64,000 nt of DNA from an uncultured Candidatus Saccharibacteria bacterium (GTDB taxonomy: Bacteria; Patescibacteriota; Minisyncoccia; Phycocordibacterales; Phycocordibacteraceae): contig CAZXAN010000001.1 in assembly GCA_964638585.1 (NCBI GenBank), positions 108,372 through 172,371 of the forward strand. The letters run 5' to 3'. The notes beneath the pieces are model-generated. The model saw only the letters and a list, made by a program, of their open reading frames with translations. It was not told the DNA's origin and made no database searches. The position numbers and the translations under genes were made by a program. This document shows positions 4,240 through 21,777 of this stretch, piece after piece. Every line of letters begins with the position of its first letter. Position 1 is the stretch's first letter.

Positions 4240-5291
4240 ATTTTCCGCCGAGATATGTCGTAGAAAGTGGCCCCGTTAGCGGCGGTTTCGGCACTACCCA
4301 TATATGTAATGACTTGCATCTCGCTCGAAAGGTCGTGGTTAAGGAGATTTCAGACAAAACAGAGATGAAGCGGCTAATCGACGAAATCGTAGCACTACAG
4401 CAGGTAAAGTCACGTCATGTGGTTCAAATTTACGATTTGATTATTGATAATGCCAGTGGGAGCCTAGCCCTTGTCGAAGAATTTCTGCCAAATGATGACC
4501 TGATGCATTTTTCAATGTCGGGTTATTCGGTAAAGGGCTACTATGACGCGCTCTATCAAATCTCGTCTGGTGTTCGGGATATTCACGCTTGTGGCATCGT
4601 TCATAGGGATTTGAAGCCCAACAACATGAAGCGGGATCAGGATGGCGCAATAAAGATTTTTGATTTTGGTCTCGCGAAGATTGCACCACTCCCCAAGAGC
4701 ACATCTGTCTTAGTGGGGACGCCTGGGTTTATGGCCCCAGAGTTATTCGAAATGCCTCCAAAGATCGATTTTCCGGTGGACGCTTTTGCGTTTGGTGCGA
4801 CCGCGTTTTTTCTTGCATGTGGGACCTTATACGCAAACGCACCGAAGGGATTTAGCCCACCGCCGCCGCTTCCTGCGGGGGAATCTATCGCGAATCACGT
4901 TGCGGTAACACCAACCATTGCCGACCTGATCGACGGATGCCTTGCTTCTGACCCTAGCATTCGGCCAAAGCTCGCTGATCTTGCAACGGCGCTTAAGCGC
5001 GAATTGCTCGTGGATCGACACCGTGCGCTCGTGGCAGATGGCTCCAGTTCGCTGATCTTGGACAAGGACAGTAGAAAGGTCAGAGCTAGGCGTGGCAAAT
5101 CTGATTCCGTCGAGATTGAGTATGACGGTTATTATTTTAAGATTTCCGAAATTGTCGGTGCCGTTTCAATTAATAACAAGACGGCAACTATTGGCGATGT
5201 ACTTAGTGGATCCCACGTTATTGTACTTGGTGCTGCAGGCATTCGACGGTTTGTCACATTTGACGTTAGTCATCCTGAGGTCCTTGCATGA
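4236..5291 (+). CDS. Hanks-type Ser/Thr protein kinase with about 90-aa C-terminal extension
   Basis: VVVKEI (VAIK-like), HRDLKPNNM catalytic loop, DFGLAK, APE motif; GTG start overlapping upstream stop, ATGA overlap with next gene. Confidence 0.85.
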   Translation: MNFPPRYVVESGPVSGGFGTTHICNDLHLARKVVVKEISDKTEMKRLIDEIVALQQVKSRHVVQIYDLIIDNASGSLALVEEFLPNDDLMHFSMSGYSVKGYYDALYQISSGVRDIHACGIVHRDLKPNNMKRDQDGAIKIFDFGLAKIAPLPKSTSVLVGTPGFMAPELFEMPPKIDFPVDAFAFGATAFFLACGTLYANAPKGFSPPPPLPAGESIANHVAVTPTIADLIDGCLASDPSIRPKLADLATALKRELLVDRHRALVADGSSSLILDKDSRKVRARRGKSDSVEIEYDGYYFKISEIVGAVSINNKTATIGDVLSGSHVIVLGAAGIRRFVTFDVSHPEVLA

Positions 5292-6373
5292 GTCATTTGC
5301 TGCAGGACGGTCAAAAGCTAGGGGGCAGATATGAGATTGTCTCGTTTCTAGACGCAGGTGGAATGCAAGAAGTCTACGTCGCACTCGACCATCTTCTGAA
5401 TCGCCATGTAGCTCTGAAGACACCTTTCACCAAGTCGGGGGAGAAGCGATTTAAGAGGAGTGCCGTACTCGCAGCGCGCATCAATCACCCAAATGTCGCA
5501 AAAACACTTGACTATTTTGGCGGGGATGGGCCGGAAGTGTTAATCGAGGAACTTGTAAACGGTCGCAGTGTAGAGGCGTTGCTCACGGACAAATATCTTT
5601 ACTTTGATCCGTCCCTAGTCGCCCAATTCGGCCATCATTTCAGCAAGGCACTTCAGGCTTCTCATCACGTAGGTGTAGTTCATAGAGATTTAAAGCCCAG
5701 TAATATAATTGCTGAATCTATTGAAGGGAGCTACGAATTCAAAGTTACTGATTTTGGAATCGCTCGTCTGGTGGAACACGAACTGGAAGATTCAACCGAT
5801 GCTAATGAATCATTAGGAACGGCTGGATCGTCAACGATCGTCGGGGCATTACCGTATATGGCCCCTGAGATGATCGAGACACCCAAAAAGACCGATAAGC
5901 CGGTAGATATTTGGGCTTTTGGCGCGATTCTTTATCGCATCATGACTGGCAACTACCCCTTTGGAATTGGTTTGGCAGCGGTACCCAAGATTTACGAGGC
6001 GAAGCCACCGCCGAAGCCAGCTCTAATCAATCAGTTGCTCCAATTCCGCGTTTTGGGAAATACAATTTGGGATATCGCCATTCGGTGCATGTCGAAGGAT
6101 CCGGCCCAACGACCGGATGCCGATCATCTTGTGGAGCAATTTTCAAATCTTTCTTACAGCGATAAGCCCCGGATCAATGCGACTATCTCAAGTTTCAGGC
6201 CGAAGGGATATGCTTGGGGATATCTCAGCTCTGGCTTAGATGCTTACTTCTTTCACCGAGATAGCTTTTACGGCCCCCTAGATCTTATCCAGGTTGGAGC
6301 AAAAGTATCCTGTTGCATTAATCCCGGGGGAGGCAATGACCGTGCACACCCAGTGTTACCTCTTAAGAGCTAA
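5288..6373 (+). CDS. Hanks-type Ser/Thr protein kinase with C-terminal cold-shock-like (OB-fold) domain
   Basis: VALKTP, VVHRDLKPSNII, TDFGIARL, YMAPE; C-terminus KGYAWGYLSSGLDAYFFHRDSF...GAKVSCCINPGGGNDRAHPV resembles CspA-type CSD. Confidence 0.8.
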   Translation: MSHLLQDGQKLGGRYEIVSFLDAGGMQEVYVALDHLLNRHVALKTPFTKSGEKRFKRSAVLAARINHPNVAKTLDYFGGDGPEVLIEELVNGRSVEALLTDKYLYFDPSLVAQFGHHFSKALQASHHVGVVHRDLKPSNIIAESIEGSYEFKVTDFGIARLVEHELEDSTDANESLGTAGSSTIVGALPYMAPEMIETPKKTDKPVDIWAFGAILYRIMTGNYPFGIGLAAVPKIYEAKPPPKPALINQLLQFRVLGNTIWDIAIRCMSKDPAQRPDADHLVEQFSNLSYSDKPRINATISSFRPKGYAWGYLSSGLDAYFFHRDSFYGPLDLIQVGAKVSCCINPGGGNDRAHPVLPLKS

Positions 6374-6432
6374 CAAGAACCACCGACAAGTCTAAAGAGG
6401 GTCTTTTCTGTCACACCGTCGGCGGGCCCGAC

Positions 6433-6825
6433 ATGGTGAGCAACATGGATATATTCAATGACCTAAGGATTACCGGTCTCGATGAGGCGTCCTCACATAT
6501 CGAAGAGAAGGGAAACTCGGAATTTCACCTATCGCTTTCAACGCCGCCGCTAGGCGAATGGGTCATCTGCTTTCAGAACGCGTGGTCACACATCTTTTAC
6601 AATACCAAGGTCCGTGCCGATGTATCTGGTGGCAGTATCGTAGTCGAATGTCACCATTCAACTTTGAACGAACACATTCAATATCTCAAAGAAGCCATTG
6701 AGGAAGCGAATCGCTCATGCAGAGAGCAGCATGCTGCGTATATAAACCAGCAGTCCGCGGAAAATCGAGAAGAACAAAAGCGCCAGAAGATATTGGCTGA
6801 CGTGAAGAGGAATCTGAAACTATAG
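6433..6825 (+). CDS. hypothetical protein, last gene of phosphatase-kinase operon
   Basis: 130-aa ORF 60 nt after kinase 2, same strand; no recognisable motif. Confidence 0.4.
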   Translation: MVSNMDIFNDLRITGLDEASSHIEEKGNSEFHLSLSTPPLGEWVICFQNAWSHIFYNTKVRADVSGGSIVVECHHSTLNEHIQYLKEAIEEANRSCREQHAAYINQQSAENREEQKRQKILADVKRNLKL

Positions 6826-6970
6826 CAGCGACGATAGATTACTAACATTCGCCGTCGGTGAGAATTCCGCAGGCGAACGTTGTACTAGTACCAATGGTGT
6901 GAATACATATAACCTACCATAAGAATTGCGGCTGCCACCGTTTGAGCATGAATAATTATATACAGCGTAA

Positions 6971-9751
6971 TTAATCGTTTTTCTTTTGCTTCGTAAGCGA
7001 CCGTGCAATCACTTCCGCAATCGCCTGCCTTCGTGCGCCCGCATCCTTCGGATCTACCACCTGCTGCACAGTACGCACCTTGTACCCGCGAACGGTCTGC
7101 TCTGTAGGTGGCGGGGCTGCGCCCAATGAGTCGAGGTATTCGGTTAGGCTCTCCGGCACGATGTATCGCACCTTGCCCTGCTCGCGCTCGTCCAGATTCT
7201 CTTCGACGAACTTGGCAAGGGCTTTGATGTGCCGCTCATTGCTTCCGACCAACACAACCTCGGTGTAGCCGGCGGCCAGACACTTTTCGACATTGCCGAG
7301 CTCATGGTCCTGATTTGTCGTCACCGATATCTCGCAGGCGATTCGACTCGCGCCGCGGACGAGTGACACGTCAACACGGCCGGCGCCGTCAAGGATCGTT
7401 TCCTCGATCGATGCCCGGAATCCTCGCTCTTCCGCGAGCTGCTTAAAGAGATGCTGCAGGTACTTGTGCTGCTGACCGCCGCGTCCCGATTCCGGAATGG
7501 TCTTCTGGACCTTCGTCGTCTTGGCCTTTACTTCCGTCGTCGGCTTGGGCGCAACGGAAATGGTCACTTGCTCAGGTTCGGCAATGGACGGTGCCGGCTC
7601 CGGCGCGGTCAGTATCTCAGGCTCGTTTGTCGGCGCGGCTTCCTGAACACGCTTCGCTAAACCCTGAGCTACGGGTGCAGGTCGTGTCCCTCGAGGCGGC
7701 GTCGGCGAGGGAGTGTAGGAGGGTAACACTGGCGGCGCGCTGTACCGCTCTCGATTATCTTCAAGCAACGCTTCCTGCTCCCTAGCTTCGAGCGTCGGCA
7801 GTGCCTCGACAAAGCCAAGCGGTATCGTCACCGAAAGAGCCTTGTTCGTGTAGTTCTTCACGTGGCAGGCAAATTCGGTGTGATTCCGCTGTTTCTTTTG
7901 CGACAACAAGAACGCCGCATCGCAACGGAACTCCGAATCGAGCGCGCTGGCGTCCTTGGCACTCAGTCCTCCGGCAAACTTGATAGTAGTGCTTGCGAGC
8001 ACGCTTGAGCGCAGTCCCGCGCCGAGCTGGTCGAGGTTCTGGTGCGCAAAGATTAGACCGACGCGGTACTTCCTGGCTTGGTTGAGAAGATGAGAAATGT
8101 TCTCGTCAAAGTAATCCTGGGCTTCGTCGATGTACACGAAGCTCGACTGGCGCTTGTACGCGGGTATGGCGGCCCGCTGCACCGCCGCCTGGGCGATCAA
8201 GGCAATGAAGAAGCGGCCGAAGATGGCGGACCCTTCTTGTCCCAAGAGGTCTTTGGCCGTATTGATGAGGATGATCTTGCCTTCGTTCAATAGCTCGAAG
8301 ATATCGATCTTGTTTCGAGGGTGCGAAAACATCCGCTCAAGGGATGCGTTGGACAAGACACCCCATAGGCGCGTCAAAATTTGCTTCTTGGTCTCATTGA
8401 ACTGGCGATCAAAGAATCGTGTCTCAAAAAAGCTCCGAGCCGTTCCGGTGAGCTTCGCCATGTATGGTCGGAACCGCTCGCTGTCTTCCATGAGTTCCCG
8501 GAGCGTGTGAATGGTGGCATCCGGTATTTCAATCAGCAGGCGCGCCAGATACTTGAAGATGAGTCCCTGGCGTTGGGTAAGCTCGGCGCCGAGAAGCGCC
8601 CCGAAGAAGTATTCGTAGAGTTCAATCGTCGCGTTGAGTATCTTTTCCCGATCAACCGGGGCGTATCCCGAAAGACGGTCTCGGTTGAAGTCGAACATGT
8701 TGAGACATACGGGGTGCTCGACATCGTTCGGATCGACCAGGACGAAGCGGTCGGCAAGGCTGCGAGATGCGGACGGGCTGAAGTATGAAAGGCGGGAAAT
8801 GGTCCGGATGAGGTCGCCCTGGCTATCCATCACCACGACCGAGCGGTTGTCCTCCTGTGCCCGTACCAAGTCATGATTGATGAGAAACTGCATGAGCTGC
8901 GTCTTGCCGTGCCCGGTACCGCCAACGATGTGCGTGTGCTCGAAGCGCGCCGGAAACGGGATGGCGAACGGTAAGGGAGCATGGAAAAAGCGAATGAACG
9001 GCGTTGCTTGCAGGTATGCCTCAATGAGGAATTCGGGAGACTGGTTCTTCTGCTGCGAGGGCAGCTTGGCCTTTCCCGCTGCCTCATGAAATTTTTCTGG
9101 AGGAATGCCAGAGGCGTGCAGGGCATTCAGGTCGAATCGCTCGCGCAGCGTCTGAAACAGGTTGGCATTGGCCACGTCCTGATCGAAGAACGTGATCAGC
9201 AGCCGATCTATGACTTCAGGAATGTTGTCGCATAGGTCATACGCCTTTGCTTCCGGCAGCACCACTGAATCATCGGCGGCGACGCCCTTCTCATCGATGT
9301 CGGTGAAGGCGGAGAGCGGGAGGTATCCGAGAATGCCGGAAAACAGGTACACGAGCTTGTCGCGCCAGATGGTAAGGAGGCGCTGCTGATCGGCGATGAA
9401 GCGCAGGTGGCGGTTGAGGGTCTTGCGAAGTTCGACGCCCTCTTCCATGGTGAGGTGCTCAAGGGACGATTCCTCGGGAAGCTCGACCATGAACCCTTCA
9501 AGGTACAAGAGGCCGGTAATCGCCGACCATAATGCCTCACCGAGCGGAATGGAGGGCGTGACGCCCCGCATTTCGCAGATTTCGTGAATAAGGTCGAGCA
9601 GGAAATTGGCCCTCTTTTTGTCGCTGCCAAGAGGCGATGCGTCGCGCGCCTGTTTGACCCGCGCGTAGAGCTCGGCCATCTCCCGAAGCTCGCGTTCGCG
9701 AGCCGATCCGAGGAACGTGTCCTGAAACCAGTTCCAGGCGTTAGTGGACAC
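6971..9751 (-). CDS. TraD/VirD4-like (T4CP-type) P-loop NTPase with N-terminal extension and C-terminal nuclease-like domain
   Basis: Walker A HIVGGTGHGKTQ, MDSQGD (DPxG-like), Walker B FVYIDEAQ, AHQNLDQL; C-terminal RVDVSLV...ACEISVTT...GYTEVVLV reminiscent of restriction-endonuclease-like fold; paralogue of 10175..11377. Confidence 0.7.
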   Translation of the reverse strand: MSTNAWNWFQDTFLGSARERELREMAELYARVKQARDASPLGSDKKRANFLLDLIHEICEMRGVTPSIPLGEALWSAITGLLYLEGFMVELPEESSLEHLTMEEGVELRKTLNRHLRFIADQQRLLTIWRDKLVYLFSGILGYLPLSAFTDIDEKGVAADDSVVLPEAKAYDLCDNIPEVIDRLLITFFDQDVANANLFQTLRERFDLNALHASGIPPEKFHEAAGKAKLPSQQKNQSPEFLIEAYLQATPFIRFFHAPLPFAIPFPARFEHTHIVGGTGHGKTQLMQFLINHDLVRAQEDNRSVVVMDSQGDLIRTISRLSYFSPSASRSLADRFVLVDPNDVEHPVCLNMFDFNRDRLSGYAPVDREKILNATIELYEYFFGALLGAELTQRQGLIFKYLARLLIEIPDATIHTLRELMEDSERFRPYMAKLTGTARSFFETRFFDRQFNETKKQILTRLWGVLSNASLERMFSHPRNKIDIFELLNEGKIILINTAKDLLGQEGSAIFGRFFIALIAQAAVQRAAIPAYKRQSSFVYIDEAQDYFDENISHLLNQARKYRVGLIFAHQNLDQLGAGLRSSVLASTTIKFAGGLSAKDASALDSEFRCDAAFLLSQKKQRNHTEFACHVKNYTNKALSVTIPLGFVEALPTLEAREQEALLEDNRERYSAPPVLPSYTPSPTPPRGTRPAPVAQGLAKRVQEAAPTNEPEILTAPEPAPSIAEPEQVTISVAPKPTTEVKAKTTKVQKTIPESGRGGQQHKYLQHLFKQLAEERGFRASIEETILDGAGRVDVSLVRGASRIACEISVTTNQDHELGNVEKCLAAGYTEVVLVGSNERHIKALAKFVEENLDEREQGKVRYIVPESLTEYLDSLGAAPPPTEQTVRGYKVRTVQQVVDPKDAGARRQAIAEVIARSLTKQKKND

Positions 9752-9752
9752 G

Positions 9753-10139
9753 TTACTTCAGCTCGATCACTTCCTCGCCGCCAAAGGTGGCGGCTGCCTC
9801 CAGCACGTTCTTGAAGGTCTGGGCAGCTTCCTTGATCTGATCCTCGACCGCAAGCATTTCAACGATATCTTTGCAATCGATTTTCTTGCCTCCCTGCAAG
9901 TCATTGACCGACACCGAGATATTCATCATCTTGAAGGCAAGCCGTGAGGCGAGCCCCAATAGCCCGCTACCTTTATCGATAATCTTGTCACGCTCATAGA
10001 GCATCGTGTCGCCGAGCTTATATTTGCTGATATTGTTCTTTTCCTCGGGCGTAAGTTCGGAGCGGACCGTGAGCGTGAACGTGATTTTGCCAATGCCGAT
10101 AATTCCCGATTTCTGGTCCCGCCGTAGCAATAATTTCAT
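9753..10139 (-). CDS. hypothetical protein between the two ATPase paralogues
   Basis: 128-aa ORF; 3-nt spacing to downstream gene, operon context. Confidence 0.4.
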   Translation of the reverse strand: MKLLLRRDQKSGIIGIGKITFTLTVRSELTPEEKNNISKYKLGDTMLYERDKIIDKGSGLLGLASRLAFKMMNISVSVNDLQGGKKIDCKDIVEMLAVEDQIKEAAQTFKNVLEAAATFGGEEVIELK

Positions 10140-10174
10140 TGTTGCATCCCTGTGGGTTATGGACCGCCCGGTTA

Positions 10175-11377
10175 TTATGCTCCCGACATTCCCTGAATCT
10201 CAAGACCCATCGGGTGCAGCGTTGTTGCGCTAAAGGGCTTGCTCGGCGACCCATCAATCATGAGCTTCAGATAGATGTCATGGTTGGCCAGATTCACCAG
10301 GTCTTCGGGGACGAACACCGGCTCAAATTCCTGGGCGAAGATCCGCGCATCCTCGGGGCCAAGGCGGAAGGAAATAATGGTGCCGACGTTGCCGAGCACC
10401 GCATGCCGAACCTCGGGCTCCAATTGGTATAGATGCTGGTGAGCGAGAATCAATCCCACATGGAACTTGCGCAATTCCGACACCATGTTTGCTACCGACA
10501 AGGTGGTAAAGCTTTGGAATTCGTCGATCAATACTATGAAGTCCGGCCTACCTGATTCTTCAGTATCGGCCCGGCTGAAGGCCGCCAAACCCAGTGTCGT
10601 CACCAGAAGCGCACCCAAAAGGTTGGCACTGTCCTCGCCTAAGCGCCCTTTGGCCAGGTTGACGATGAGAATCTTCCCCTCGTCCATGATTTGCCGAAAA
10701 TGAAGGTCAACCGTTGGAGTGGTAAACATCCGGTAGAGGCGCGGGTCGGCAAGAAAGGCGCCGACCTTGTTTTGAATCGGGGCGATGGATTCCTGGCGAT
10801 ACCGAGGGTTATAGTTTGGGAATTCCTTGGCCCAGAACAGCCTCACCTGTTCGTTTTTGACGCGACCGAGCACCTGGTTTCGAAATGATTTGTCGGTGAG
10901 CATTCGCAAGATGTCTGGAAGCGTAGCATCGCCGGCTTCAATGAGTGCGAAAAGCGTGTTTCTTAGGATGTGCTCCATCCTCACTCCCCAGGCTTCATCC
11001 CACAGTTTTTTGAAAGCTTCCATGAGGCCGGACGCTGCGAGCGGTATTCTGTCCGTTTGCACGCGGCGCAATGGGTTGTATCCGAACCGCTGAGAAGTGT
11101 CCGGGGCATTCAGGTAGATGAGGTCGCGCTCGCGCCACCGGGGAACCTGCGCGACAAGCCGTTCGGCGAGATCCCCGTGGGGATCGATCACCGCCACTCC
11201 GCGCCCGCGCATCATGTCTTGCAAGGCGACAGTTTCTAGAAGCGTCGTTTTTCCTGTTCCGGTCTTGCCGATGGCGTACGTATGAAAAAGCCGGTCGGCC
11301 TGCTTTATGCCGAAGGTCCGGTGCGGGTTACGCGCGTTGGTTATTGCGAAGTATGAAATAGTTGGGTTCCTGAGCAT
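10175..11377 (-). CDS. TraD/VirD4-like (T4CP-type) P-loop NTPase, ATPase core only
   Basis: Walker A AIGKTGTGKTT, VIDPHGD, Walker B FIVLIDEFQ, LILAHQHLYQL; about 35-40 percent identical across the core to the 921-aa backbone protein at 55791..58556. Confidence 0.75.
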   Translation of the reverse strand: MLRNPTISYFAITNARNPHRTFGIKQADRLFHTYAIGKTGTGKTTLLETVALQDMMRGRGVAVIDPHGDLAERLVAQVPRWRERDLIYLNAPDTSQRFGYNPLRRVQTDRIPLAASGLMEAFKKLWDEAWGVRMEHILRNTLFALIEAGDATLPDILRMLTDKSFRNQVLGRVKNEQVRLFWAKEFPNYNPRYRQESIAPIQNKVGAFLADPRLYRMFTTPTVDLHFRQIMDEGKILIVNLAKGRLGEDSANLLGALLVTTLGLAAFSRADTEESGRPDFIVLIDEFQSFTTLSVANMVSELRKFHVGLILAHQHLYQLEPEVRHAVLGNVGTIISFRLGPEDARIFAQEFEPVFVPEDLVNLANHDIYLKLMIDGSPSKPFSATTLHPMGLEIQGMSGA

Positions 11378-11513: not shown

Positions 11514-12080
11514 ATGGATTACTTAGATCATTCAGATGTGAAATTATTGGGGGTGCTTGTAGGGGAAAAGACCGCTCAGCGGCTGTATCAGGGAAGCTTG
11601 GTATCGCTCTTTGCAACGGGATCGATTGGTCAGGAGATGCATCCGAGAATTGCAGCAGCTCGGGAACTGGTAAAGCGAGTGCTAAAGGAGGAGATGAAGC
11701 GTGGTGCCATGCTGTCGAGCCCGGCTGCCGTGAGGGAGTACCTTCGGCTTCTCTTGATCGGGAAGGAGTATGAGGTGTTCGTAGTGCTTTTTCTCGACGC
11801 GCAGAACCGTATGATTGAGGCTGAAGAACTATTCCGCGGGACACTCACGCAAACGTCGGTGTATCCCCGGGAGGTAGTGAAGCGCGCGCTCTATCACAAT
11901 GCGGGGGCGGTAATCTTCGGCCATAATCATCCCTCCGGCGTAGCGGAACCGAGTCATGCGGATGAAGCCCTGACACAAGCCCTCAAACAGGCGCTTGCTC
12001 TTGTTGATGTGCGGGTGCTCGACCATTTCATCGTGGCCGGCAACGGAGTGATGAGCTTCGCCGAAAGGGGGTCGATATAA
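11514..12080 (+). CDS. radC: RadC-family JAB/MPN domain protein
   Basis: N-terminal HhH-like region, JAMM motif [15 protein letters not shown]; divergent from ATPase operon. Confidence 0.9.
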   Translation: MDYLDHSDVKLLGVLVGEKTAQRLYQGSLVSLFATGSIGQEMHPRIAAARELVKRVLKEEMKRGAMLSSPAAVREYLRLLLIGKEYEVFVVLFLDAQNRMIEAEELFRGTLTQTSVYPREVVKRALYHNAGAVIFGHNHPSGVAEPSHADEALTQALKQALALVDVRVLDHFIVAGNGVMSFAERGSI

Positions 12081-12181: not shown

Positions 12182-13114
12182 CTAGACCATTGCCGCTTCT
12201 ATTTCGTTGAGGATAAGAAAAATATTTCTAAGAATCCCCCAGAAAAAGCCGGCAAGCCCGACTGTAAGGACACCAACAATCCCAAGAAGTGGGAAATATA
12301 TGAATCCCTCCCCAAATATCGCGGTTTCGTAGCCAATAATATTAAACGACACCGTACCTAATATCGCAATAAGCAGTGCAAGAGCAACACCTAGCAAGGT
12401 GGACCATTTCTGGTGACAACGTTCCAGTGCAGAAGCAGTCGGGTTTGTTCCGCTACCGGTCCTTGGGAGCACTGAAATTCGATGTAAGAAATCCATCAGC
12501 GTTAATAGCATCGCAAACAATACCCCAACACTTGCATAGAATTTAACGTTCTTGTGAGGCAGCTCTATTGCAAAAAGGATTGCAGCAAATGACAGCAGCA
12601 CCAGCAGAAAAATGGAGAAAAACCGTGCCAATATCCCCCTCCTAAAAAAAGTAGAAATGAGTGCAAGGGCAAAAATAGTCAACGCGCAAATCACCGCCGT
12701 AGCGTAGAAAAATTTGCGCGGCGATAAGTCTTGTGCTGCCTTCATTTTTTCAATGTAATCCAATGCTATGAGCCGCTTCTCCTTCAAGCGATCATAGAGA
12801 ACACTCGACGAGCATCCGATTCCTTCCGTTGACTGCTCCTTGGCAACTTGCCGGCTCGGGGGTTTGGTAGGCTCCTTGCGCATCGCTCGGATGTGTTCCG
12901 CACGGCACTCCGCCCTTTCAGCTTCAACAAAAGATTCTTTAAATTCCCGGATCACTAGGTGCCCCGCTGCCTCGGCCGCCTTAAACAAATCTTTGTTCTC
13001 CTGGTCGTACCAATAGGGAGCACCCATAAGTATGCAGAAGAATAGAGTGAACCATATGCACAGCGACATGGTGTAGCCCCCAGAGGTCGACTGCCGGTCG
13101 TACCAAGCGTTCAT
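12182..13114 (-). CDS. polytopic membrane protein, function unknown
   Basis: multiple hydrophobic helices; likely start MNAWYD at 13112-13114 overlapping stop of upstream DedA-like gene. Confidence 0.5.
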   Translation of the reverse strand: MNAWYDRQSTSGGYTMSLCIWFTLFFCILMGAPYWYDQENKDLFKAAEAAGHLVIREFKESFVEAERAECRAEHIRAMRKEPTKPPSRQVAKEQSTEGIGCSSSVLYDRLKEKRLIALDYIEKMKAAQDLSPRKFFYATAVICALTIFALALISTFFRRGILARFFSIFLLVLLSFAAILFAIELPHKNVKFYASVGVLFAMLLTLMDFLHRISVLPRTGSGTNPTASALERCHQKWSTLLGVALALLIAILGTVSFNIIGYETAIFGEGFIYFPLLGIVGVLTVGLAGFFWGILRNIFLILNEIEAAMV

Positions 13115-13779
13115 AGCTCCTCCGATCCCGAAAATATGTGTTTCGCAAAATAAAACAGAACTAGCGATACAGCGCCTACGGATACTGCCACCGCGATGGT
13201 GTATTGAAAGGCGAAATCTCCAAACAGATAACCGAGGCCGGTCCAAATCATCACCCAGATACTAATCCCGCATATGGAACTCGTAGAAAACGCGATATGG
13301 CTCATTCGACTACACCCAGCAGGGTAAGAAGCTATAGAGCGGGCTACAGGAACAAGTCTGATAAGTACAACCCGTAACCAACCTTGCTCTCTGAAAGACC
13401 TAACCAGAACAGGCATCCAGGCCGTATATGTATATGCGAAAATGTACCACCAACGCTCCCGATAGTTTTGCACTCTCTTCCAGATCGGCGTCATAGATGA
13501 TTTCGCATCGCGTAACCCTACCAAATACCAAAGAGTGGTACCTAGGTGATTTGAAATAATCGCTAAAGCGACAAACGTTGATGGATTAATGTCATGCGCG
13601 ACTGCGTACATTCCAGCGGCCACACAGATATATTCACTCGGCGGTATCATGATTGAAGAGTTCAAAAACATCAACACCACGACCAGTACGGCTACAAATA
13701 AGGGACTGGGGAGAGAGAATACTGTGCGGACTGTCCCCTCGATGTCCATCAGCCTGTATAGGTCAAGAACTACCTCCAT
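13111..13779 (-). CDS. DedA/VTT-family-like membrane protein
   Basis: hydrophobic profile and LIRLVPVARSIASYPAG segment resembling DedA R-x-x-P-x-x-R region; internal start MEVVLDLY chosen. Confidence 0.5.
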   Translation of the reverse strand: MEVVLDLYRLMDIEGTVRTVFSLPSPLFVAVLVVVLMFLNSSIMIPPSEYICVAAGMYAVAHDINPSTFVALAIISNHLGTTLWYLVGLRDAKSSMTPIWKRVQNYRERWWYIFAYTYTAWMPVLVRSFREQGWLRVVLIRLVPVARSIASYPAGCSRMSHIAFSTSSICGISIWVMIWTGLGYLFGDFAFQYTIAVAVSVGAVSLVLFYFAKHIFSGSEEL

Positions 13780-14477
13780 CCCGGCCTTCCAGCGGCAGGC
13801 ATTGCGACAAAGGCTATCGAGGCAAGGACGAACAGAATCAAGCCTAAGTATGATAAGGAGGAACCGATCGACACCGTACAGGCAGGAATAAGGAGCGAAA
13901 TTGGAATGATGCCCTTCCACTGCAAAGCCGCGCAGCTCCGTTTTACTAAAGATGACACCTTCGAAGAACAGTCTTGCGCAATGTTCCCATACGGGTCCAT
14001 GCATGGGGCTGGCATCCACTTGACTAGCGAGCGTTCATCTTCACGAATGCTTTTCGAATAGAGCATACTCGTGAGATATTTCCTTTCTTCCTTGGTGATA
14101 TGTTTCGCGGTCTTGTGCAGCACGATTTCAATAGCATTAAATTGGGGTCCAAAAAAATGGGATACAAAGGCCCTGCCAATCTCCAATTCCGCAAAAATGC
14201 GGTCCCTATAAAACCTGATGTGCACTTCATTGTTCCCGTCATATGGCAGCACCAATCCAGCAAGCTGAGAGTCATATATGTATTGCCAAGGGGTCTCTCT
14301 GAAACCTATTTGTTTTAGCTTTTCGTATAGTTTCAGAGAAATGGGATCTTTTAATAAACGACCAGCAACAATACGTGGTGAGAGAATGCCAAATGAGCGT
14401 AGGCGGCGTTTCATTGCCCGGACCTGTAATTTTCCGGTCGCATGGCGACTATCACTTAGTGCTGTTTGCATTAGCAT
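13770..14477 (-). CDS. hypothetical protein, first gene of membrane-protein operon
   Basis: 235-aa ORF whose stop overlaps DedA-like start; no recognisable motif. Confidence 0.35.
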   Translation of the reverse strand: MLMQTALSDSRHATGKLQVRAMKRRLRSFGILSPRIVAGRLLKDPISLKLYEKLKQIGFRETPWQYIYDSQLAGLVLPYDGNNEVHIRFYRDRIFAELEIGRAFVSHFFGPQFNAIEIVLHKTAKHITKEERKYLTSMLYSKSIREDERSLVKWMPAPCMDPYGNIAQDCSSKVSSLVKRSCAALQWKGIIPISLLIPACTVSIGSSLSYLGLILFVLASIAFVAMPAAGRPGWR

Positions 14478-14626
14478 GTCACGGTTGTGGAAGTATCGTA
14501 TTTTTCAGTATATGATCTAAGCATAAACAATACAATGGGTGTTTTTATTTCTGAGGTATGCGATCGCGTTTGCCATCTCTGCCGGGAACAGCGAGCTGCT
14601 GGAAAACGTCGAGGCGGAAGAATTCG

Positions 14627-14812
14627 ATGATTGCGCAAGAACTTATTGATCTGCGCGAACGAATGCATTGGTCGCAAATCGAAGCTGCGCACCAACTGGG
14701 CTGCTCTCGTCGTGCTATTGCCGATTGGGAAGGAGGCAATACGCCCATACCCAATAGCATCGCGCTCGTAGTTTCCACTGCCGTTTTGAACATTTGTTGG
14801 GACCGTCGATAG
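14627..14812 (+). CDS. small XRE-family HTH protein
   Basis: MIAQELIDLRERMHWSQIEAAHQLGCSRRAIADWEGG typical Cro/C1 HTH. Confidence 0.6.
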   Translation: MIAQELIDLRERMHWSQIEAAHQLGCSRRAIADWEGGNTPIPNSIALVVSTAVLNICWDRR

Positions 14813-14883
14813 CTGAATGCGAGGGCACCTCTTCATCTCGCTACGTACTGCACCGTATATGTGGTTCGACGGCCCCTCGCTCC

Positions 14884-15591
14884 CTACAGTACATTCAAAT
14901 CGTCGAAATCCGCAATTGCTGTGGTGTCCGGTACGCGCCTTGCGATAAAGAGGCCGACGACGGGGACGTTTGGATACCTGGTGTTCAGCACCCGTTTCAT
15001 TGCCGTGAAGTGACAGCCCGTCGTAAGGACGTCATCAAACAAAAAAATGGTTTGCGGGGCGGGTTCTGCCACCGATTCCTTTATTTCATAGTTAGCAACC
15101 AGGTCGTCCGGTCTTGGTCGAATGTCGGTGTCATGCGCAGGCTCGACTGATTTCGTTTGCACCACGAGTTCGCGGATATCTGCGTTGCGACCTCGCTCGA
15201 TTTGCTGGAGCATCTGCAACATCCGATTATCATATTCGGGATGATCGGTGGCCTTCGAAGGTGGAATGGGAACAAGGGTGATCTGGGGCAGCGCATCTTC
15301 GCGGATGGCGTCCCGAAATATGGACGCGGCGCGCGCAATCGCCTGCTCTTTGTAGCGCCACTCCGGTCGACCCCGCCGCATCGGACTTTTCTTGAAATTG
15401 ATGATTAGTCCGTTCGTTTCGCTAAACGCATAGCCTTTTCGGGCAGTGTACTCTCCCCAGTAGTAGCATGTGTCCTCTGGGCTCAGGTAGTAGTGATCTG
15501 GGCGGACGAGATCATCAATCAGTTGCAGTCGCGCCAAGATGTCCCCTGATATCGTCGTAGCCTTGGACCCGAATGGCCCCTTGTGCCTCAA
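14884..15591 (-). CDS. ComF/ComFC-like phosphoribosyltransferase-domain protein, no zinc finger
   Basis: PRTase type I motif IFLFDDVLTTGCHF near C-terminus; overlaps stop of dprA-like gene. Confidence 0.75.
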   Translation of the reverse strand: MRHKGPFGSKATTISGDILARLQLIDDLVRPDHYYLSPEDTCYYWGEYTARKGYAFSETNGLIINFKKSPMRRGRPEWRYKEQAIARAASIFRDAIREDALPQITLVPIPPSKATDHPEYDNRMLQMLQQIERGRNADIRELVVQTKSVEPAHDTDIRPRPDDLVANYEIKESVAEPAPQTIFLFDDVLTTGCHFTAMKRVLNTRYPNVPVVGLFIARRVPDTTAIADFDDLNVL

Positions 15592-16420
15592 AGCGCCGGG
15601 GCCAAGTCAATGCAGAGTTTCGGAAACAACTATCAAGGATGAAAAGTTTTCGTCCTTGGGCCAGTGCGGCACGGGCCTGAGTCAGCGTGCCCGAGGTCTC
15701 ACCGGCTTCAATAATAATCGTGGCTTCCGTGAGCGCAGACATCGTGATGTTACGTTCTGGGAAGAACAGCCGATTGCCCTTATACGTCTGCTGTGCGTAG
15801 CGGCATACCGGAACCTGACTTATTAGGAGATAGTTCTCAGCGATTTGCCGTTGAAGTTCGGCGTTCTCGGTCGGGTAGATCTTGTTTAGTGGCGTGCCGA
15901 TTACCGCGATGGTGAAGCCCTTGCTTTCAATTGCGGTCGTGTGAGCGACCGTATCGATCCCTTTCGCCAACCCAGAGACTATGCCGAATTTGTCTTTGAC
16001 TAATAACTTGACCATTTTTCGAGCACGGCGAATCCCGTCCTCGGACGGAGTACGTGTCCCGACTATGGCGACAAGTCGCGGGTGGTTCACCAAGTCCCAC
16101 CAACCTTGGTAATACAACATCTCAATGGGATGCCAGGCATCCCGCAGGCGTTCGGGATACTCGCCCGCACCGTGTACGCGAACGCCAAATTTGTGAATAC
16201 CTGCTTTCGCAAGGAACCTGAGAGTCTTTTCGGCGAAACTCTCTGCTTCTGCTCGGGGGACAAAATTTGATGGAACCGCATTCGCTTTCTTGCGAAACAT
16301 ATCGGCGATTGACTTGAAAGACGCACCGTTTCTGTCCCAGAGTGCTTCATATGCCCCCAACTCCCATAGCGGGGAGATCGGTGGTGATGTGAAACCGGCG
16401 TCAATCAGCGTATCAGTCAT
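15515..16420 (-). CDS. dprA: DprA/Smf-family (SLOG superfamily) Rossmann-fold protein
   Basis: VAIVGTRTPS, GIVSGLAKGIDTVAHTTAI, IAVIGTPLNKIYP, EAGETSGTLTQARAALAQGRKLFIL match DprA core. Confidence 0.85.
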   Translation of the reverse strand: MTDTLIDAGFTSPPISPLWELGAYEALWDRNGASFKSIADMFRKKANAVPSNFVPRAEAESFAEKTLRFLAKAGIHKFGVRVHGAGEYPERLRDAWHPIEMLYYQGWWDLVNHPRLVAIVGTRTPSEDGIRRARKMVKLLVKDKFGIVSGLAKGIDTVAHTTAIESKGFTIAVIGTPLNKIYPTENAELQRQIAENYLLISQVPVCRYAQQTYKGNRLFFPERNITMSALTEATIIIEAGETSGTLTQARAALAQGRKLFILDSCFRNSALTWPRRFEAQGAIRVQGYDDIRGHLGATATD

Positions 16421-16603
16421 CGTAATATCACCAAAGAGAGAGATTGCGAGCTATGCAGTTAGTCACGCGACTACCGCGATGAGGATCAGGAGTCAAGTCA
16501 GCAATGCGCTAAGAGGTTATACGCCACAACGCTCGCCCATTCCAGAAAGCTTTGCCCGCGATAGGATTCGAATCGGGAACGATTGATAAATGTACATAAT
16601 GCA

Positions 16604-16939
16604 TCACTTACTTGCTGAACCAAGCAGCCACATCAGTGCGGCCACGACACCTGCCCCGACGAGCAAATTCTTCACGTGTTCCCGTGCTGCCTCTTGCTGC
16701 TTGTCGGCGGTGGATTGGAACTGGCGCATAAGCGCGACTTGATACGCGCTCGGCTTAAGGACACCACGTTCCCATTTACTCACGGTCATGGCATGCGTGT
16801 CGAATAGTTGTCCAAATTCAACTTGTGACAACCCGAGGGCCCGGCGGAGCGTCGCGACATCAAATGCAATCATAAGCCTGATACTAACCCAATTCGTAAG
16901 CCTACGCTTAGCTCTTTTTCTCAGCAAGAGCGCGAACAA
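16604..16939 (-). CDS. XRE-family HTH protein with C-terminal transmembrane anchor
   Basis: LRRALGLSQVEFGQLFDTHAMTVSKWERG HTH plus C-terminal hydrophobic LLVGAGVVAALMWLLG. Confidence 0.6.
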   Translation of the reverse strand: MFALLLRKRAKRRLTNWVSIRLMIAFDVATLRRALGLSQVEFGQLFDTHAMTVSKWERGVLKPSAYQVALMRQFQSTADKQQEAAREHVKNLLVGAGVVAALMWLLGSASK

Positions 16940-17227
16940 TTTCCTAACGAGGCTTCTTCGCTCCAGACCGATGGGGCGAGCTAGGATGTCCGCCCGAATT
17001 TACCAATGTCAATGACACGCTGAGCGCCGCCACATTTGCTGCCCATCAACGAGACCGTGTACCAACAAACTCTAAGAATCTTTCAAATTGGCAGATTTGT
17101 CGCCGGCGAATACACCTGGAGCCTACCTTGCATCGCTGTTGAAGCGGTGCATGCCCGAACTGTCACGTCGCTCTTGGGCACGTTTTCACCTCTTTGATGT
17201 CACTTTCAGCGCTCCTACGCTCTCGCC

Positions 17228-17437
17228 ATGGACGACAAGGAAGCACAGCGCGTCCGGGAGGCTTATAAGCAAGAGTTTGGCGAAGACCTTACGGAAAAAG
17301 AAGCAAGTGTAATGCTCACGCAGCTGGTGCAGCTTTATCTTCACATCTCGCGCCAGTTGCCACCTGACACGTCCGGCAATACCGACACTCTCAAAAAATA
17401 CAGTCGCTTCTCTAATGGATCATTGATGGCGGAATAG
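17228..17437 (+). CDS. small conserved protein, repeated family A (MDDKEAQRVRE...LVQLYLHISR)
   Basis: one of 4-5 paralogous copies (also 20353, 36957, 41044, 48430) with conserved upstream DNA. Confidence 0.5.
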   Translation: MDDKEAQRVREAYKQEFGEDLTEKEASVMLTQLVQLYLHISRQLPPDTSGNTDTLKKYSRFSNGSLMAE

Positions 17438-17830
17438 GTTGATGAACCATCTCGCAATTTTCTGCCAAAGCCCGAAGTGCGTCGGCGTGTCGAAATATTG
17501 CTCTCGGGCGCGTTGGTCGCTAAGGCGACCAGCCTCAATTTCACTCTTCGACCATTGAGGCGCCCAGACTATATTGTCGCCCCGTATCAAGTAATGAGAT
17601 CGACATGGTAGATTCCAGTTGCCGATTGATGGGTGAAGCGTGACTGCGCCTCGCTTTGTCGTAAGTTGCCATCCACCTGGTTTGAGGGGCGTTACTACCT
17701 TGCTTCCGCAGCCACAGCAGCAAAGATGGGATGCCGTTTTGTACTTGTGGGAGATATAAAGGACGCCGTTCTCTAACGTCTTCGGAATGAATTCAACAAA
17801 CTCGCCCCAGACGTGCTCAACCCTGCTCAT
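17420..17830 (-). CDS. DUF6527-like small Cys/His protein (putative non-canonical E2-like component)
   Basis: CCCGCGSKV...HPSIGNW...CRSHYLIRGDNIVW; start 14 nt inside E1 stop; internal Met chosen over 206-aa ORF. Confidence 0.6.
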   Translation of the reverse strand: MSRVEHVWGEFVEFIPKTLENGVLYISHKYKTASHLCCCGCGSKVVTPLKPGGWQLTTKRGAVTLHPSIGNWNLPCRSHYLIRGDNIVWAPQWSKSEIEAGRLSDQRAREQYFDTPTHFGLWQKIARWFINLFRHQ

Positions 17831-19007
17831 GTAAGTCTTCGTTAAGGAGCCGACCCGTGCCGATCGTGTAACTATTGAAGCGCTCATGCGTAAAATCAAA
17901 GTAGAAGCCGCGCATCTTCTTCCAGCGTATGACTGCAAGGGTCGCGTTAAGAGCATTGAGGTCAGCAATCTGAATGTTCTTGTCGTATTCATTGTTGCCG
18001 TCTCCGTCGGCAAACGACAACCGGTTTCTAGCAATGGCACGACTATCCTTGTCGCTCGTGGTCACGCGCAGTATGCCACCGATAGTTTCGTTGGTGACGT
18101 ACAGGCCCATGCCCGTATCGATAAATGGAATGCCAAATTCCTCTAGCTTTTCGACTATCAACTTCTTAGCCAACCCGGCATCGATGCACAAAAACACACA
18201 CGTCATTTCGCGCAACTGCTCCACGTTTGAGCTATCTACGTGCTCTCCGTGGGCGACGACACCGCGGTGCAACTTGGAATATATCGCCTTGAAGTAGTCC
18301 ACCTTTAACGGCTGTTGATGCAGCTCGTCTTTGGATGCGGCCCCAGGCGCACGAAATGCGTTGTGGGACGAAAATTTGTCCCCATCAAACAAGTGAACCT
18401 CTCTTGCCGGCGTCTTGGCCAGGAGATCTAAGACATACGAGCCTGTGCCACCCAATCCAACTATCGCCAACTTCTCAACTGCAAGCTTGTTCGTGATCAT
18501 GTTGATATCCGCACGAGCGGATGCGGTGTCGAGATAGTTGAACGGTGAATTGTCGTCCTCAGGCTCAACTACCCGAAACGTCCTGGCGGTCGCAGACGGA
18601 TCGATATTGGCTGCGTGACCAGAAAGAATGGCCACATAGGTCTTGATTTTCTCGTGGTAGTCCTCGTAGTGGCCACGCAGCGGCTTGCTGGAAAAATGGA
18701 ACTGCGAACTTAATGTGTCGCTGAATCGAACCACCTCTTCGATCAGGCTTAATGCTTCTATCGGGTGGCCCTCACTTGTACACGGGCATTGACCGGCGAA
18801 CCTAATTTGATGGGTGTCAGGCCGATTCGCAACATCCCCATTGAGGTTCAGGCTGCTAATGAGGATGCCATCGTACTGCACCTTCCGCTTGTCATTGACA
18901 TACGGAATGTCCCGGATAACCAGGTTCGCTCCGTGGATGTAGACATTGTATCCTTCATCTCGGAGGCGCCGCAGGTCAGCATTAAGATCGAATAGTTTTG
19001 ACGACAT
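17817..19007 (-). CDS. ThiF/MoeB-family E1-like enzyme with N-terminal E2-like domain
   Basis: Rossmann motif LAIVGLGGTGSYVLDLLAKTPAREVHLFDGDKF; N-terminal 140 aa with HQIRFAGQCPC resembling UBC H-x-N...Cys spacing. Confidence 0.75.
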   Translation of the reverse strand: MSSKLFDLNADLRRLRDEGYNVYIHGANLVIRDIPYVNDKRKVQYDGILISSLNLNGDVANRPDTHQIRFAGQCPCTSEGHPIEALSLIEEVVRFSDTLSSQFHFSSKPLRGHYEDYHEKIKTYVAILSGHAANIDPSATARTFRVVEPEDDNSPFNYLDTASARADINMITNKLAVEKLAIVGLGGTGSYVLDLLAKTPAREVHLFDGDKFSSHNAFRAPGAASKDELHQQPLKVDYFKAIYSKLHRGVVAHGEHVDSSNVEQLREMTCVFLCIDAGLAKKLIVEKLEEFGIPFIDTGMGLYVTNETIGGILRVTTSDKDSRAIARNRLSFADGDGNNEYDKNIQIADLNALNATLAVIRWKKMRGFYFDFTHERFNSYTIGTGRLLNEDLHEQG

Positions 19008-19248
19008 CAAAGATGGTCCCGTGTTTTTTAACCTCGACGGACCCGGCGGCGGCAAGCGTGCCGTGGTGCGGCTTGCTCTGTGCATGTTCGAATGTGATCG
19101 AAAAAATCACGTTCGGGTCTTCAGGATGCCCTGGATACGCGATATCGATGAGGGAATTGAACGTCATCACCTCGGTCAAGACCAAGTGCGGTGTGCCATT
19201 CACAATGATTTCGTACTCTTTTTCATGTGCCATGATGATTTTCTCCAC
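18982..19248 (-). CDS. small beta-grasp ubiquitin-like protein
   Basis: 88 aa, predicted beta-alpha-beta pattern (YEIIVNGTPHLV...VIFSITFE...SVEVKKHGTIFDVV); 22 nt upstream of E1; ends KTIRS, not Gly-Gly. Confidence 0.5.
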   Translation of the reverse strand: MEKIIMAHEKEYEIIVNGTPHLVLTEVMTFNSLIDIAYPGHPEDPNVIFSITFEHAQSKPHHGTLAAAGSVEVKKHGTIFDVVKTIRS

Positions 19249-19395
19249 CAGCTTCTAGGGTAAGTGCGACGCTGGTATCGCATTAGAAATTTTACGCCTG
19301 CTGTTAATAACATCAAGGGAATTCAAGGTCACATATTGTTATTGTGAGTAACATATGGTATCGTTGACACCGTGCGGTATTTTGCATAACCTGTT

Positions 19396-19779
19396 TTGCA
19401 CACCAAGCTTAAATCGATGACGACCGCAAGCGCTAAAATTGAAAAGAGTGATAGCGATATTGAACAGGAAATACGAGAAGCGATCGGAGCTCGGATCGCT
19501 GAGATTCGGCGCAAGCGGAAGCTTAGCGCGCGCCTGGTCGGAGAGAAGCTCAAGATAACTCGTGAAGCGGTCACACACATTGAGACAGGAAGAAATAACG
19601 TTACCGCGCTTTCTCTATGGAAGCTCGCGACGCTATTTCATTGCGACATTAAGGACTTCTTCCCGGATGTGCCTGACGGTTACGGTCTTACCAAGATCGA
19701 TACCGAGAAGATCGCCCAGGAGGGCGGCCAAAAGGCGGCCAATTGGGCGAAAGAGCTTTTCGGTGCCAAATTAAAGTAA
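19396..19779 (+). CDS. XRE-family HTH transcriptional regulator (CapH-like)
   Basis: GARIAEIRRKRKLSARLVGEKLKITREAVTHIETGRNN HTH; divergent from Ubl operon. Confidence 0.75.
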   Translation: MHTKLKSMTTASAKIEKSDSDIEQEIREAIGARIAEIRRKRKLSARLVGEKLKITREAVTHIETGRNNVTALSLWKLATLFHCDIKDFFPDVPDGYGLTKIDTEKIAQEGGQKAANWAKELFGAKLK

Positions 19780-19785
19780 ATCCGT

Positions 19786-20286
19786 ATGATGATAGAAAAA
19801 ATTGAATCGGCCGCCGAGCAACTCCTTGCGAGGTTAAATATAAGAGGAGTGCCTATTCCAATTGAAGACATCGCCCGCTCTCTCGATATACGCATCAGCC
19901 GTGCACCGAGTGCAGACTTTTCGGGACTTCTAATAAGAAAAGACGGCCACGCGCTCATTGGCGTCAATAGCAGTGAGGCTCCCGTACGTCAGCGATTCAC
20001 TATCGCGCATGAAATTGCTCACTTTATCTTGCACCCACAGAAAGATGCCTTTGTCGATTACAGAAAGGAAAGAAGTGGGGGAGAAGCCAGGCCACTGCGT
20101 GAGCGCTACGCCGATATGTTTGCAGCAGCTCTCCTTATGCCGCGTAAGATCCTGTTGAAAGATTTTCGACGGCTAGCCAAGGATGGGTATACCGATCAGA
20201 TTACCGTGGCTCTTGCTAGACAATACGCAGTAAGTGAAGATGCTATGCGCTTTAGACTATTGAATCTCAATTCAATCGGAAATTGA
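19786..20286 (+). CDS. ImmA/IrrE-family zinc metallopeptidase (CapP-like)
   Basis: HEIAHFILH HExxH motif in ImmA-like context directly after HTH gene. Confidence 0.8.
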   Translation: MMIEKIESAAEQLLARLNIRGVPIPIEDIARSLDIRISRAPSADFSGLLIRKDGHALIGVNSSEAPVRQRFTIAHEIAHFILHPQKDAFVDYRKERSGGEARPLRERYADMFAAALLMPRKILLKDFRRLAKDGYTDQITVALARQYAVSEDAMRFRLLNLNSIGN

Positions 20287-20352
20287 GTTCTCGCCATACT
20301 GGGTTTGTTTTCACCTCTTTGACGCCCTGATCGCTACGCGTATCCTCTCACC

Positions 20353-20523
20353 ATGGACTTGAAAGAAGCACAGCGCTTACGGCAACAAGCGCTCACATCA
20401 AGGACCAGACGGAGTCGCGGAAGCTTGACAAATATCGCGGCATGTCCCAGCTTGTGTGATGACCTTCGGGAACCACATCTATGCCAGGCCGATGATGACG
20501 GTCAAAATCGCAAAGCACTTTAG
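20353..20523 (+). pseudogene. degenerate copy of small-protein family A (MDLKEAQRLRQ...)
   Basis: conserved upstream DNA tttcacctctttgacgc...ctctcaccATGGAC shared with other A copies; product diverges after 10 aa. Confidence 0.35.
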
Positions 20524-21531: not shown

Positions 21532-21777
21532 TTGTTGCGGCGGCGACAAATAACCGCGACTACTGTAAAGCGCGCGCTCTATCACAATACTGGCGCCGTA
21601 ATCTTCGGCCACAATCACCTTTCGGGCGTAGCGGAACCGAGCCATGCCGACGAGACGCTCACGCAAGCCCTCAAACAGGCGCTTGCCATCGTAGATGTAC
21701 GGGTGCTTGATCACTTTGTAGTAGCGGGGAATGGGGTGATGAGCTTCGCTGAATGTGGACGACGCTGTCCTTATTGA
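21532..21777 (+). pseudogene. RadC C-terminal fragment (partial duplicate of 11514..12080)
   Basis: about 85 percent nt identity to 3' third of radC; lacks N-terminal half; JAMM His/Ser/Asp retained (HNHLSG...SHAD). Confidence 0.7.

Follow-up and report, generated by a model that had tools for sequence, protein, structure and literature searches.

A short-form ShosTA gene pair, probably a toxin-antitoxin defence system, in a chromosomal mobile defence island

Does a DprA-like gene that overlaps a phosphoribosyltransferase (PRTase) gene belong to natural transformation, or to one of the conflict systems that have borrowed the same folds? The question is raised by positions 14558–16939 of a 64,000-nucleotide stretch of contig CAZXAN010000001.1 (here called the window, to which all coordinates refer). 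The original prediction for this locus described four open reading frames (ORFs), with the DprA-like and PRTase genes overlapping, a membrane-anchored XRE protein upstream and a small convergent XRE protein on the other side, and the ORF list of the window confirms all of these. It considered a competence role plausible and offered a computationally predicted SLOG plus PRTase conflict module as the alternative. The alternative was right in kind but understated, as the module is not merely predicted: it is ShosTA, a named system that has been studied experimentally. The pair is an uncharacterised new copy within the short-form ShosTA family, and we estimate a probability of roughly 0.85 that it is a ShosTA type IV toxin-antitoxin and abortive-infection defence system, in the form with a short ShosT, carried as cargo of a chromosomal mobile defence island.

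The overlapping pair and the ShosTA family

ShosTA entered the literature as a toxin-antitoxin pair (as related in the Millman 2022 preprint), its defence of E. coli against phages has been shown (Millman 2022 preprint; Rousset 2022, PMC9122126), and structural and mechanistic studies have followed (PMC11961720, PMC12961424). The two genes of the window that we assign to it are adjacent on the same strand, in a one-operon arrangement:

15515–16420, minus strand: shosA, predicted DprA-like antitoxin of 301 amino acids (aa) (PADLOC ShosA, Pfam DNA_processg_A, AF2/Foldseek)
14884–15537, minus strand: shosT, predicted short-form PRTase toxin of 217 aa with a TTG start (PADLOC ShosT, gene calls, AF2/Foldseek)

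The DprA-like protein matches the PADLOC ShosA model PDLC03961 with an E value of 2.7e-101 (residues 22–296 against profile positions 23–294 of 303). Pfam DNA_processg_A matches at 2.3e-56, and chance cannot account for E values of this order; there is also a weak match to the SLOG family LDcluster4. Its AF2 model (pLDDT 87.1) combines an N-terminal helical, SAM-like domain with the DprA Rossmann fold, and the full-length Foldseek matches include S. pneumoniae DprA (3uqz, 1.8e-19) and E. coli ShosA (8zva, 4.8e-18). As to the comparison with DprA C-terminal domains that had been proposed for this protein, its model and the Foldseek alignments show that it has no C-terminal winged helix. Three arginines, R123 (in GTR), R223 (in ERN) and R250 (in QAR), align with R139, R234 and R261 of E. 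coli ShosA, which are needed there for binding single-stranded DNA (ssDNA) (PMC12961424), and they are invariant or nearly so among 25 ShosA homologues.

For the PRTase, the PADLOC ShosT model PDLC03962 gives 5.1e-49 over profile positions 3–215 of 237, and a Pfam search returned no match. The best Foldseek match of its AF2 model (pLDDT 86.9) is H. pylori ComF (7p0h, 4.3e-5), followed by E. coli ShosT (8zvd, 8zvc and 8zvb, 9e-5 to 6e-4, the best at 9.3e-5), which rank above ordinary PRTases. The phosphoribosyl pyrophosphate (PRPP) loop, FLFDDVLTTG, does not vary among the 22 aligned homologues. Nor do D168 and D169, which hhalign places on D331 and D332 of E. coli ShosT, the residues whose mutation abolishes toxicity (PMC11961720; PMC12961424). 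The protein has only two cysteines, C24 and C175 in the 217-aa form, and C24 alone is invariant in the family. The Cys4 zinc finger of ComFC is thus absent, as had been proposed from the sequence.

The start of shosT bears on the overlap. Although the longest PRTase ORF spans 14884–15591 on the minus strand, gene calls on three identical metagenome contigs and the alignment of 22 homologues place the start at TTG 15537, preceded by a Shine-Dalgarno-like AGGGGA and followed by a protein that begins MARLQ. From this start the shosA/shosT overlap is 23 nucleotides (nt), and it would be 77 nt if the longest ORF were taken. The NCBI annotation of the source contig appears to give ShosT as a 165-aa product (P0122) that starts well inside the conserved N-terminal region, and that start is probably misplaced. 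A promoter and terminator scan of 14300–17300 gave nothing above the shuffled expectation, and the shosAT promoter is therefore not located. A repeat search at the locus found short chance matches only, and an Rfam scan found no RNA family near it.

The pair can be compared directly with the characterised E. coli ShosTA (APEC O1, KTE181 and the P2-like prophage hotspot; PDB 8zva–8zvd, 9vzo). Both place the antitoxin gene first and the toxin gene second, match the same PADLOC families, carry the Asp-Asp motif and the arginines, share a ShosA of SAM-like domain plus DprA fold, and occur in mobile or defence settings. The difference lies in ShosT. E. coli ShosT has 424 aa, with a pyrophosphatase (PPase) domain at residues 1–164 and a C-terminal PRTase (PMC11961720; PMC12961424), whereas the 217-aa protein of the window is the PRTase fold alone and lacks the N-terminal domain. 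PADLOC provides E. coli-specific models (PDLC02997 and PDLC03012) alongside the general ones (PDLC03961 and PDLC03962). While PDLC02997 matches the window ShosA at 1.2e-21 only, the general ShosT model PDLC03962 matches the long E. coli protein (1.8e-53) and other short forms as well. Because its scores for the two forms are similar, the short form is already filed under ShosTA by existing tools. The PPase domain is a trait of the one representative studied, and the general profile does not demand it.

Several observations weigh against this assignment. In sequence, the window ShosA is no nearer to E. coli ShosA (1.2e-19) than to S. pneumoniae DprA (3.9e-26). Between short and long ShosT, hhalign aligns the PRPP loop only, and searches of PDB sequences with ShosT alone and with a 22-sequence profile gave no true match, only a spurious cytochrome. 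E. coli ShosA carries a long disordered C-terminal tail that the window protein lacks. The searchable literature yielded no experiments on short-form ShosTA, the characterised E. coli proteins being of the 424-aa form, and even the E. coli studies leave ShosT without a named acceptor substrate (PMC11961720; PMC12961424). The tail has been linked to the instability of E. coli ShosA (PMC11961720), and given a tail-less ShosA the trigger of the window system may therefore differ in detail. As for the missing domain, a PPase mutant of E. coli ShosT was only marginally less toxic and the Asp-Asp of the PRTase was decisive (PMC11961720), so the short form plausibly retains the essential activity. 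Any effect of the lost pyrophosphatase on ShosT chemistry we can only infer.

By analogy with E. coli, ShosT would be a PRPP-binding phosphoribosyltransferase whose activity is poisonous to nucleotide (purine) metabolism and harms DNA under replication. ShosA would be a dimeric, DprA-like ssDNA-binding protein that does not sequester the toxin and instead relies on RecA and recombination functions to counter the damage. The toxicity would be unleashed by an infecting phage, which either shuts off host gene expression or gives rise to ssDNA replication intermediates that draw ShosA away, and replication would then halt in the infected cell. The same analogy would predict toxicity, neutralisation, a trigger of this kind and phage defence for the window copy.

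The differences in ShosT could instead indicate a ShosTA relative with another mode of action, in which a PPase-less, ComF-like ShosT acts on or with ssDNA and ShosA and not through purine poisoning. The short ShosT lacks the PPase domain, its model is as near to ComF (4.3e-5) as to E. coli ShosT (9.3e-5), and its sequence shows no link to the long form beyond the PRPP loop. The tail-to-tail occurrence of short and long systems on four rhizobial plasmids also hints that the two are not redundant. It is tempting to go further and to see ShosTA as an immune offshoot of the ComFC-DprA transformation machinery, with the short ShosT acting on or sensing ssDNA together with its DprA-like partner and the rhizobial pairing of short and long forms reflecting complementary specificities; we would give this speculation little weight. 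The different mode of action itself seems improbable, as the E. coli PPase mutant keeps most of its toxicity while the Asp-Asp is decisive (PMC11961720), the Asp-Asp motif is invariant in the short family, and the general PADLOC ShosT model spans both forms.

The rhizobial plasmids carry the short and long ShosTA operons tail to tail in LR723680.1 (our locus L106, 93361–97133; labels of this form denote related loci), CP021375.1, NZ_CP034911.1 and NZ_CP071629.1, all from Rhizobiaceae. On the NT-25 plasmid the two operons lie 20 bp apart and adjoin a CBASS-like nucleotidyltransferase-patatin cluster, and the long ShosT is annotated there as "pyrE / orotate phosphoribosyltransferase".

Two other kinds of system share parts with the pair and were rejected. 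PsyrTA / RqlHI has a DprA-like antitoxin too, and the PsyrA model matches the window ShosA weakly (1.5e-22). The PsyrTA toxin is a RecQ-like helicase; no helicase gene adjoins the pair, its neighbours being the PRTase and XRE genes, and the E value of the ShosA model is better by about 80 orders of magnitude. A retron with a PRTase effector was set aside as the locus holds no reverse transcriptase (RT), the only one in the window belonging to a group II intron at 44.5–46.3 kb.

Competence genes or mobile cargo

If the pair were genuine competence genes, the DprA protein would load RecA on incoming ssDNA and the ComFC-like protein would aid uptake. The resemblance is real: the ShosA protein has the DprA fold, the DprA family domain and the ssDNA-binding residues, ShosT has a ComF-like PRTase fold whose best structural match is H. 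pylori ComF, and TIGR00201 (comF) matches ShosT faintly (E 0.006). The scores, however, fall below the family cut-offs throughout, at 158 bits against 191.15 for TIGR00732 (dprA), 129.7 against 495 for NF008007 (enterobacterial DprA) and 16.5 against 233.55 for TIGR00201. The dedicated ShosA and ShosT models fit far better. ShosT has no Cys4 zinc finger, ShosA has no winged helix, and comFA, comEA and comEC are not adjacent to the pair among the ORFs and gene calls of the locus. Together with the accessory and mobile distribution described below, these differences make the competence role extremely improbable, and we do not retain it.

The window is a chromosomal island, and its GC content is 46–62%. 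It holds a large serine recombinase, two Ser/Thr kinases, two TrwB/HerA-like ATPases, radC, ShosTA and a multi-ubiquitin/E1/DUF6527 cassette, together with a NACHT-FGE protein, IS66 and IS21-type elements, an Mrr-STAND-TPR protein, a ResIII helicase and a group II intron. Housekeeping genes (DHODH, Ham1, tgt and uvrB) lie at its right end. Pfam and PADLOC matches on the neighbours bear out the earlier description of the surroundings as a defence island.

Relatives are numerous, with 1,586 ShosT-like and more than 6,600 ShosA-like proteins in the protein collection. To count gene order we used the 80 genome loci fetched with the ShosT alignment, which are its best genome matches. In 79 of the 80 loci the ShosT-like gene is directly preceded, on its own strand, by a ShosA-like gene, and the two overlap in 77; the remaining locus is cut by a contig end. 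The hosts are Alpha-, Beta- and Gammaproteobacteria, Acidobacteriota, Chloroflexota, Binatia, Nitrospira and others. Patescibacteria are absent from these best 80 matches, and the nearest relatives of the window's mobile genes are proteobacterial. Neither this nor the GC content supports the Patescibacteria-like host that the original prediction had assumed.

The genes around the related loci bear no relation to one another from one locus to the next, but defence and mobility functions abound among them: GmrSD, MmeI/Eco57I methylases, TIR proteins, DarT-associated NADAR and integrases. Conjugative plasmids and P2-like phages of Burkholderia and Ralstonia carry homologous pairs, and the short-form pair is found at full length in only 38 of 5,426 complete E. 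coli genomes. A long-type locus in a P2-like phage has the same A-then-T gene order. From the plasmid and phage occurrence and the rarity in E. coli, it follows that the pair is mobile accessory cargo and not part of a core competence set. The short-form pairs of E. coli M11 plasmid B, Burkholderia phage Mana, Ralstonia phage YO009_3 and the rhizobial plasmids are built like that of the window, with a DprA-like gene of about 300 aa overlapping a PRTase gene of about 210–220 aa; they match the same PADLOC models, and their ShosT proteins are 31–55% identical to that of the window. For these plasmid and phage pairs we found no experimental test, and they are annotated as "DprA" together with "hypothetical protein" or "phosphoribosyltransferase". 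When the DNA of the locus was searched for near-identical copies in E. coli genomes and plasmids, there was no match. The first 50 kb of the Shewanella sp. ANA-3 plasmid contained no DprA gene, and we set that lead aside as unreliable.

In six relatives (L004, L005, L006, L009, L014 and L017) ShosT is followed, at a distance of about 25 bp and on its own strand, by a gene for a conserved protein of about 379 aa without a Pfam match. The relatives with this gene come from Ralstonia, Dyella, Nevskia, Dechloromonas and Lysobacter, with a ShosT identity of about 55–62%. Where a fusion of a helix-turn-helix (HTH) domain and an M78 peptidase also precedes ShosA (L004, L005 and L017), the locus may represent a four-gene variant.

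The significance of the assignment is small beyond correct labelling, that is, as ShosTA (a defence toxin-antitoxin system) and not as dprA/comF competence genes. Public records of the homologues carry the name "DNA-processing protein DprA" and a Gene Ontology term for transformation, which misleads the inference of competence in uncultured lineages. The short form is also abundant (about 1,600 clusters) and, unlike the only characterised ShosT, lacks the PPase domain, which makes it a simple test case for the parts of ShosT needed for toxicity.

The neighbouring XRE genes

Two XRE genes bracket the pair, an arrangement to which the original prediction drew attention. The features concerned are as follows:

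16604–16873, minus strand: XRE/MqsA-like HTH neighbour of 89 aa with a hydrophobic C-terminal tail, non-core (HTH_3 and MqsA-family matches)
16520–16597, minus strand: LRAT/NlpC-like pseudogene remnant, first 26 codons and then a stop (tblastn, translation)
14627–14812, plus strand: small XRE HTH neighbour of 61 aa as called, non-core (HTH_3 1.8e-5)

An XRE-type ORF lies within 800 bp in only about 8 of 79 related loci. Because they are not conserved beside ShosTA in relatives, the two genes are neighbours from other modules and no components of the system, and the bracketing is incidental.

The upstream gene has its longest ORF at 16604–16939 on the minus strand, but is 89 aa long as called and in homologues. 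Its product combines an HTH_3/MqsA-like domain with a hydrophobic C-terminal tail that is conserved, and its family of 252 homologues is of near-identical length. Directly after the XRE homologue, 10 loci (from three look-ups) carry a tail-anchored LRAT/NlpC-like gene of about 126 aa. In the window, tblastn with the partner protein from L094 detects a match at 16597–16520 with 54% identity over 26 aa (E 1.2e-4), where the reading frame stops after ...GERCGV. The upstream XRE gene is thus an orphan, left over from an XRE plus LRAT-like pair that has degraded, and ShosTA adjoins a decayed neighbour module. XRE homologues with 65–67% identity are also found upstream of ShosTA in L089 and L093, with the XRE/LRAT-like pair intact in L089 and reduced to a C-terminal remnant in L093. 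More widely, the two-gene module (an 88-aa XRE/MqsA-like protein and the LRAT/NlpC-like protein of about 126 aa, both hydrophobic-tailed) is present in L089 and L093–L103, often near integrases or DUF2958 genes.

The small XRE gene has its longest ORF at 14558–14812 on the plus strand and is called from 14627. It is convergent with shosT and divergent from a membrane-protein operon at 12182–14477 on the minus strand. Outside the identical element, 13 loci were searched and none has a counterpart beside ShosT; their sole match, of borderline strength (E 9.7e-4), is a 170-aa HTH protein encoded in L089 ahead of ShosA.

A different kind of regulator does recur. In L086 (80% identity) and in L091 and L092 (66%), shosA is immediately preceded by a co-oriented CapH/CapP-like pair of XRE and M78 peptidase genes, and HTH-M78 fusions overlap shosA in L004, L005 and L017. 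The XRE/M78 genes are thus a recurrent but non-universal regulatory add-on in relatives. In the window the CapH/CapP-like pair is located at 19396–20286, adjoining the multi-ubiquitin cassette.

These regulators bear on whether the pair could mainly be an addiction module, one that stabilises the island or element under transcriptional control by the neighbouring XRE proteins, with phage defence secondary or absent. The first description of ShosTA as a toxin-antitoxin pair (Millman 2022 preprint), the serine recombinase, TrwB/HerA-like ATPases and RadC of the island, the pairs on conjugative plasmids and the XRE plus M78 genes directly upstream in the closest relatives would all fit such a role. 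Yet E. coli ShosTA protects against T7 by about 10^6-fold (PMC11961720), and both XRE genes of the window are non-conserved partners. Addiction and defence are not mutually exclusive, but a mainly addictive function appears doubtful, and we continue to favour a ShosTA defence system.

Other modules of the island

Positions 17420–19248 on the minus strand encode a multi-ubiquitin protein (PF14452), an E1-like protein with ThiF and DUF6791 domains and a DUF6527 protein. The cassette is divergent from the XRE and M78 genes at 19396–20286 on the plus strand, whose peptidase matches PADLOC CapP at 2.8e-32. Taken together, 17420–20286 looks like a bacterial ubiquitin-like conjugation module with CapH/CapP-type control. 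In L086, which holds the closest ShosTA relative, a Multi_ubiq/ThiF cassette adjoins a run of XRE, M78, ShosA and ShosT genes.

Two sets of direct repeats frame this region. The larger, of 194 nt and 81% identity (11877–12070 and 21565–21758), matches the 3' end of radC. This gene is intact at 11514–12080 and present as a fragment at about 21532–21777, and the 9.7-kb block that these copies bracket contains ShosTA, the ubiquitin-like cassette and the XRE-M78 pair. The radC repeats may be the trace of an insertion or recombination at radC. The smaller, of 83 nt and 71% identity (17175–17257 and 20300–20382), flanks the ubiquitin-like/XRE-M78 block and takes in the first codons of two small ORFs, which begin MDDKEAQRV... 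and MDLKEAQRL..., along with the sequence upstream of them.

Towards the left of the window, the segments 3031–6373 (plus strand) and 6971–11377 (minus strand) hold two tandem Ser/Thr kinase genes, which come after a 402-aa ORF without a Pfam match and resemble PADLOC mad6 and PD-T4-6, and near them the two TrwB/HerA-like ATPases, which resemble mad8. The kinases and ATPases of 3031–11377 may be parts of a MADS-like defence cluster. Further to the right, 25057–27789 (plus strand) encodes a fusion of a NACHT NTPase with an FGE-sulfatase-type domain, and 38225–40999 (minus strand) one of an Mrr nuclease with a STAND NTPase and TPR repeats; both proteins look like Avs/NLR-type sensors. Downstream of the ResIII helicase, 44483–46295 on the minus strand is a complete group II intron, with Rfam matches to D1–D4 and D5/6 and an RT/maturase ORF at 44554–45951.

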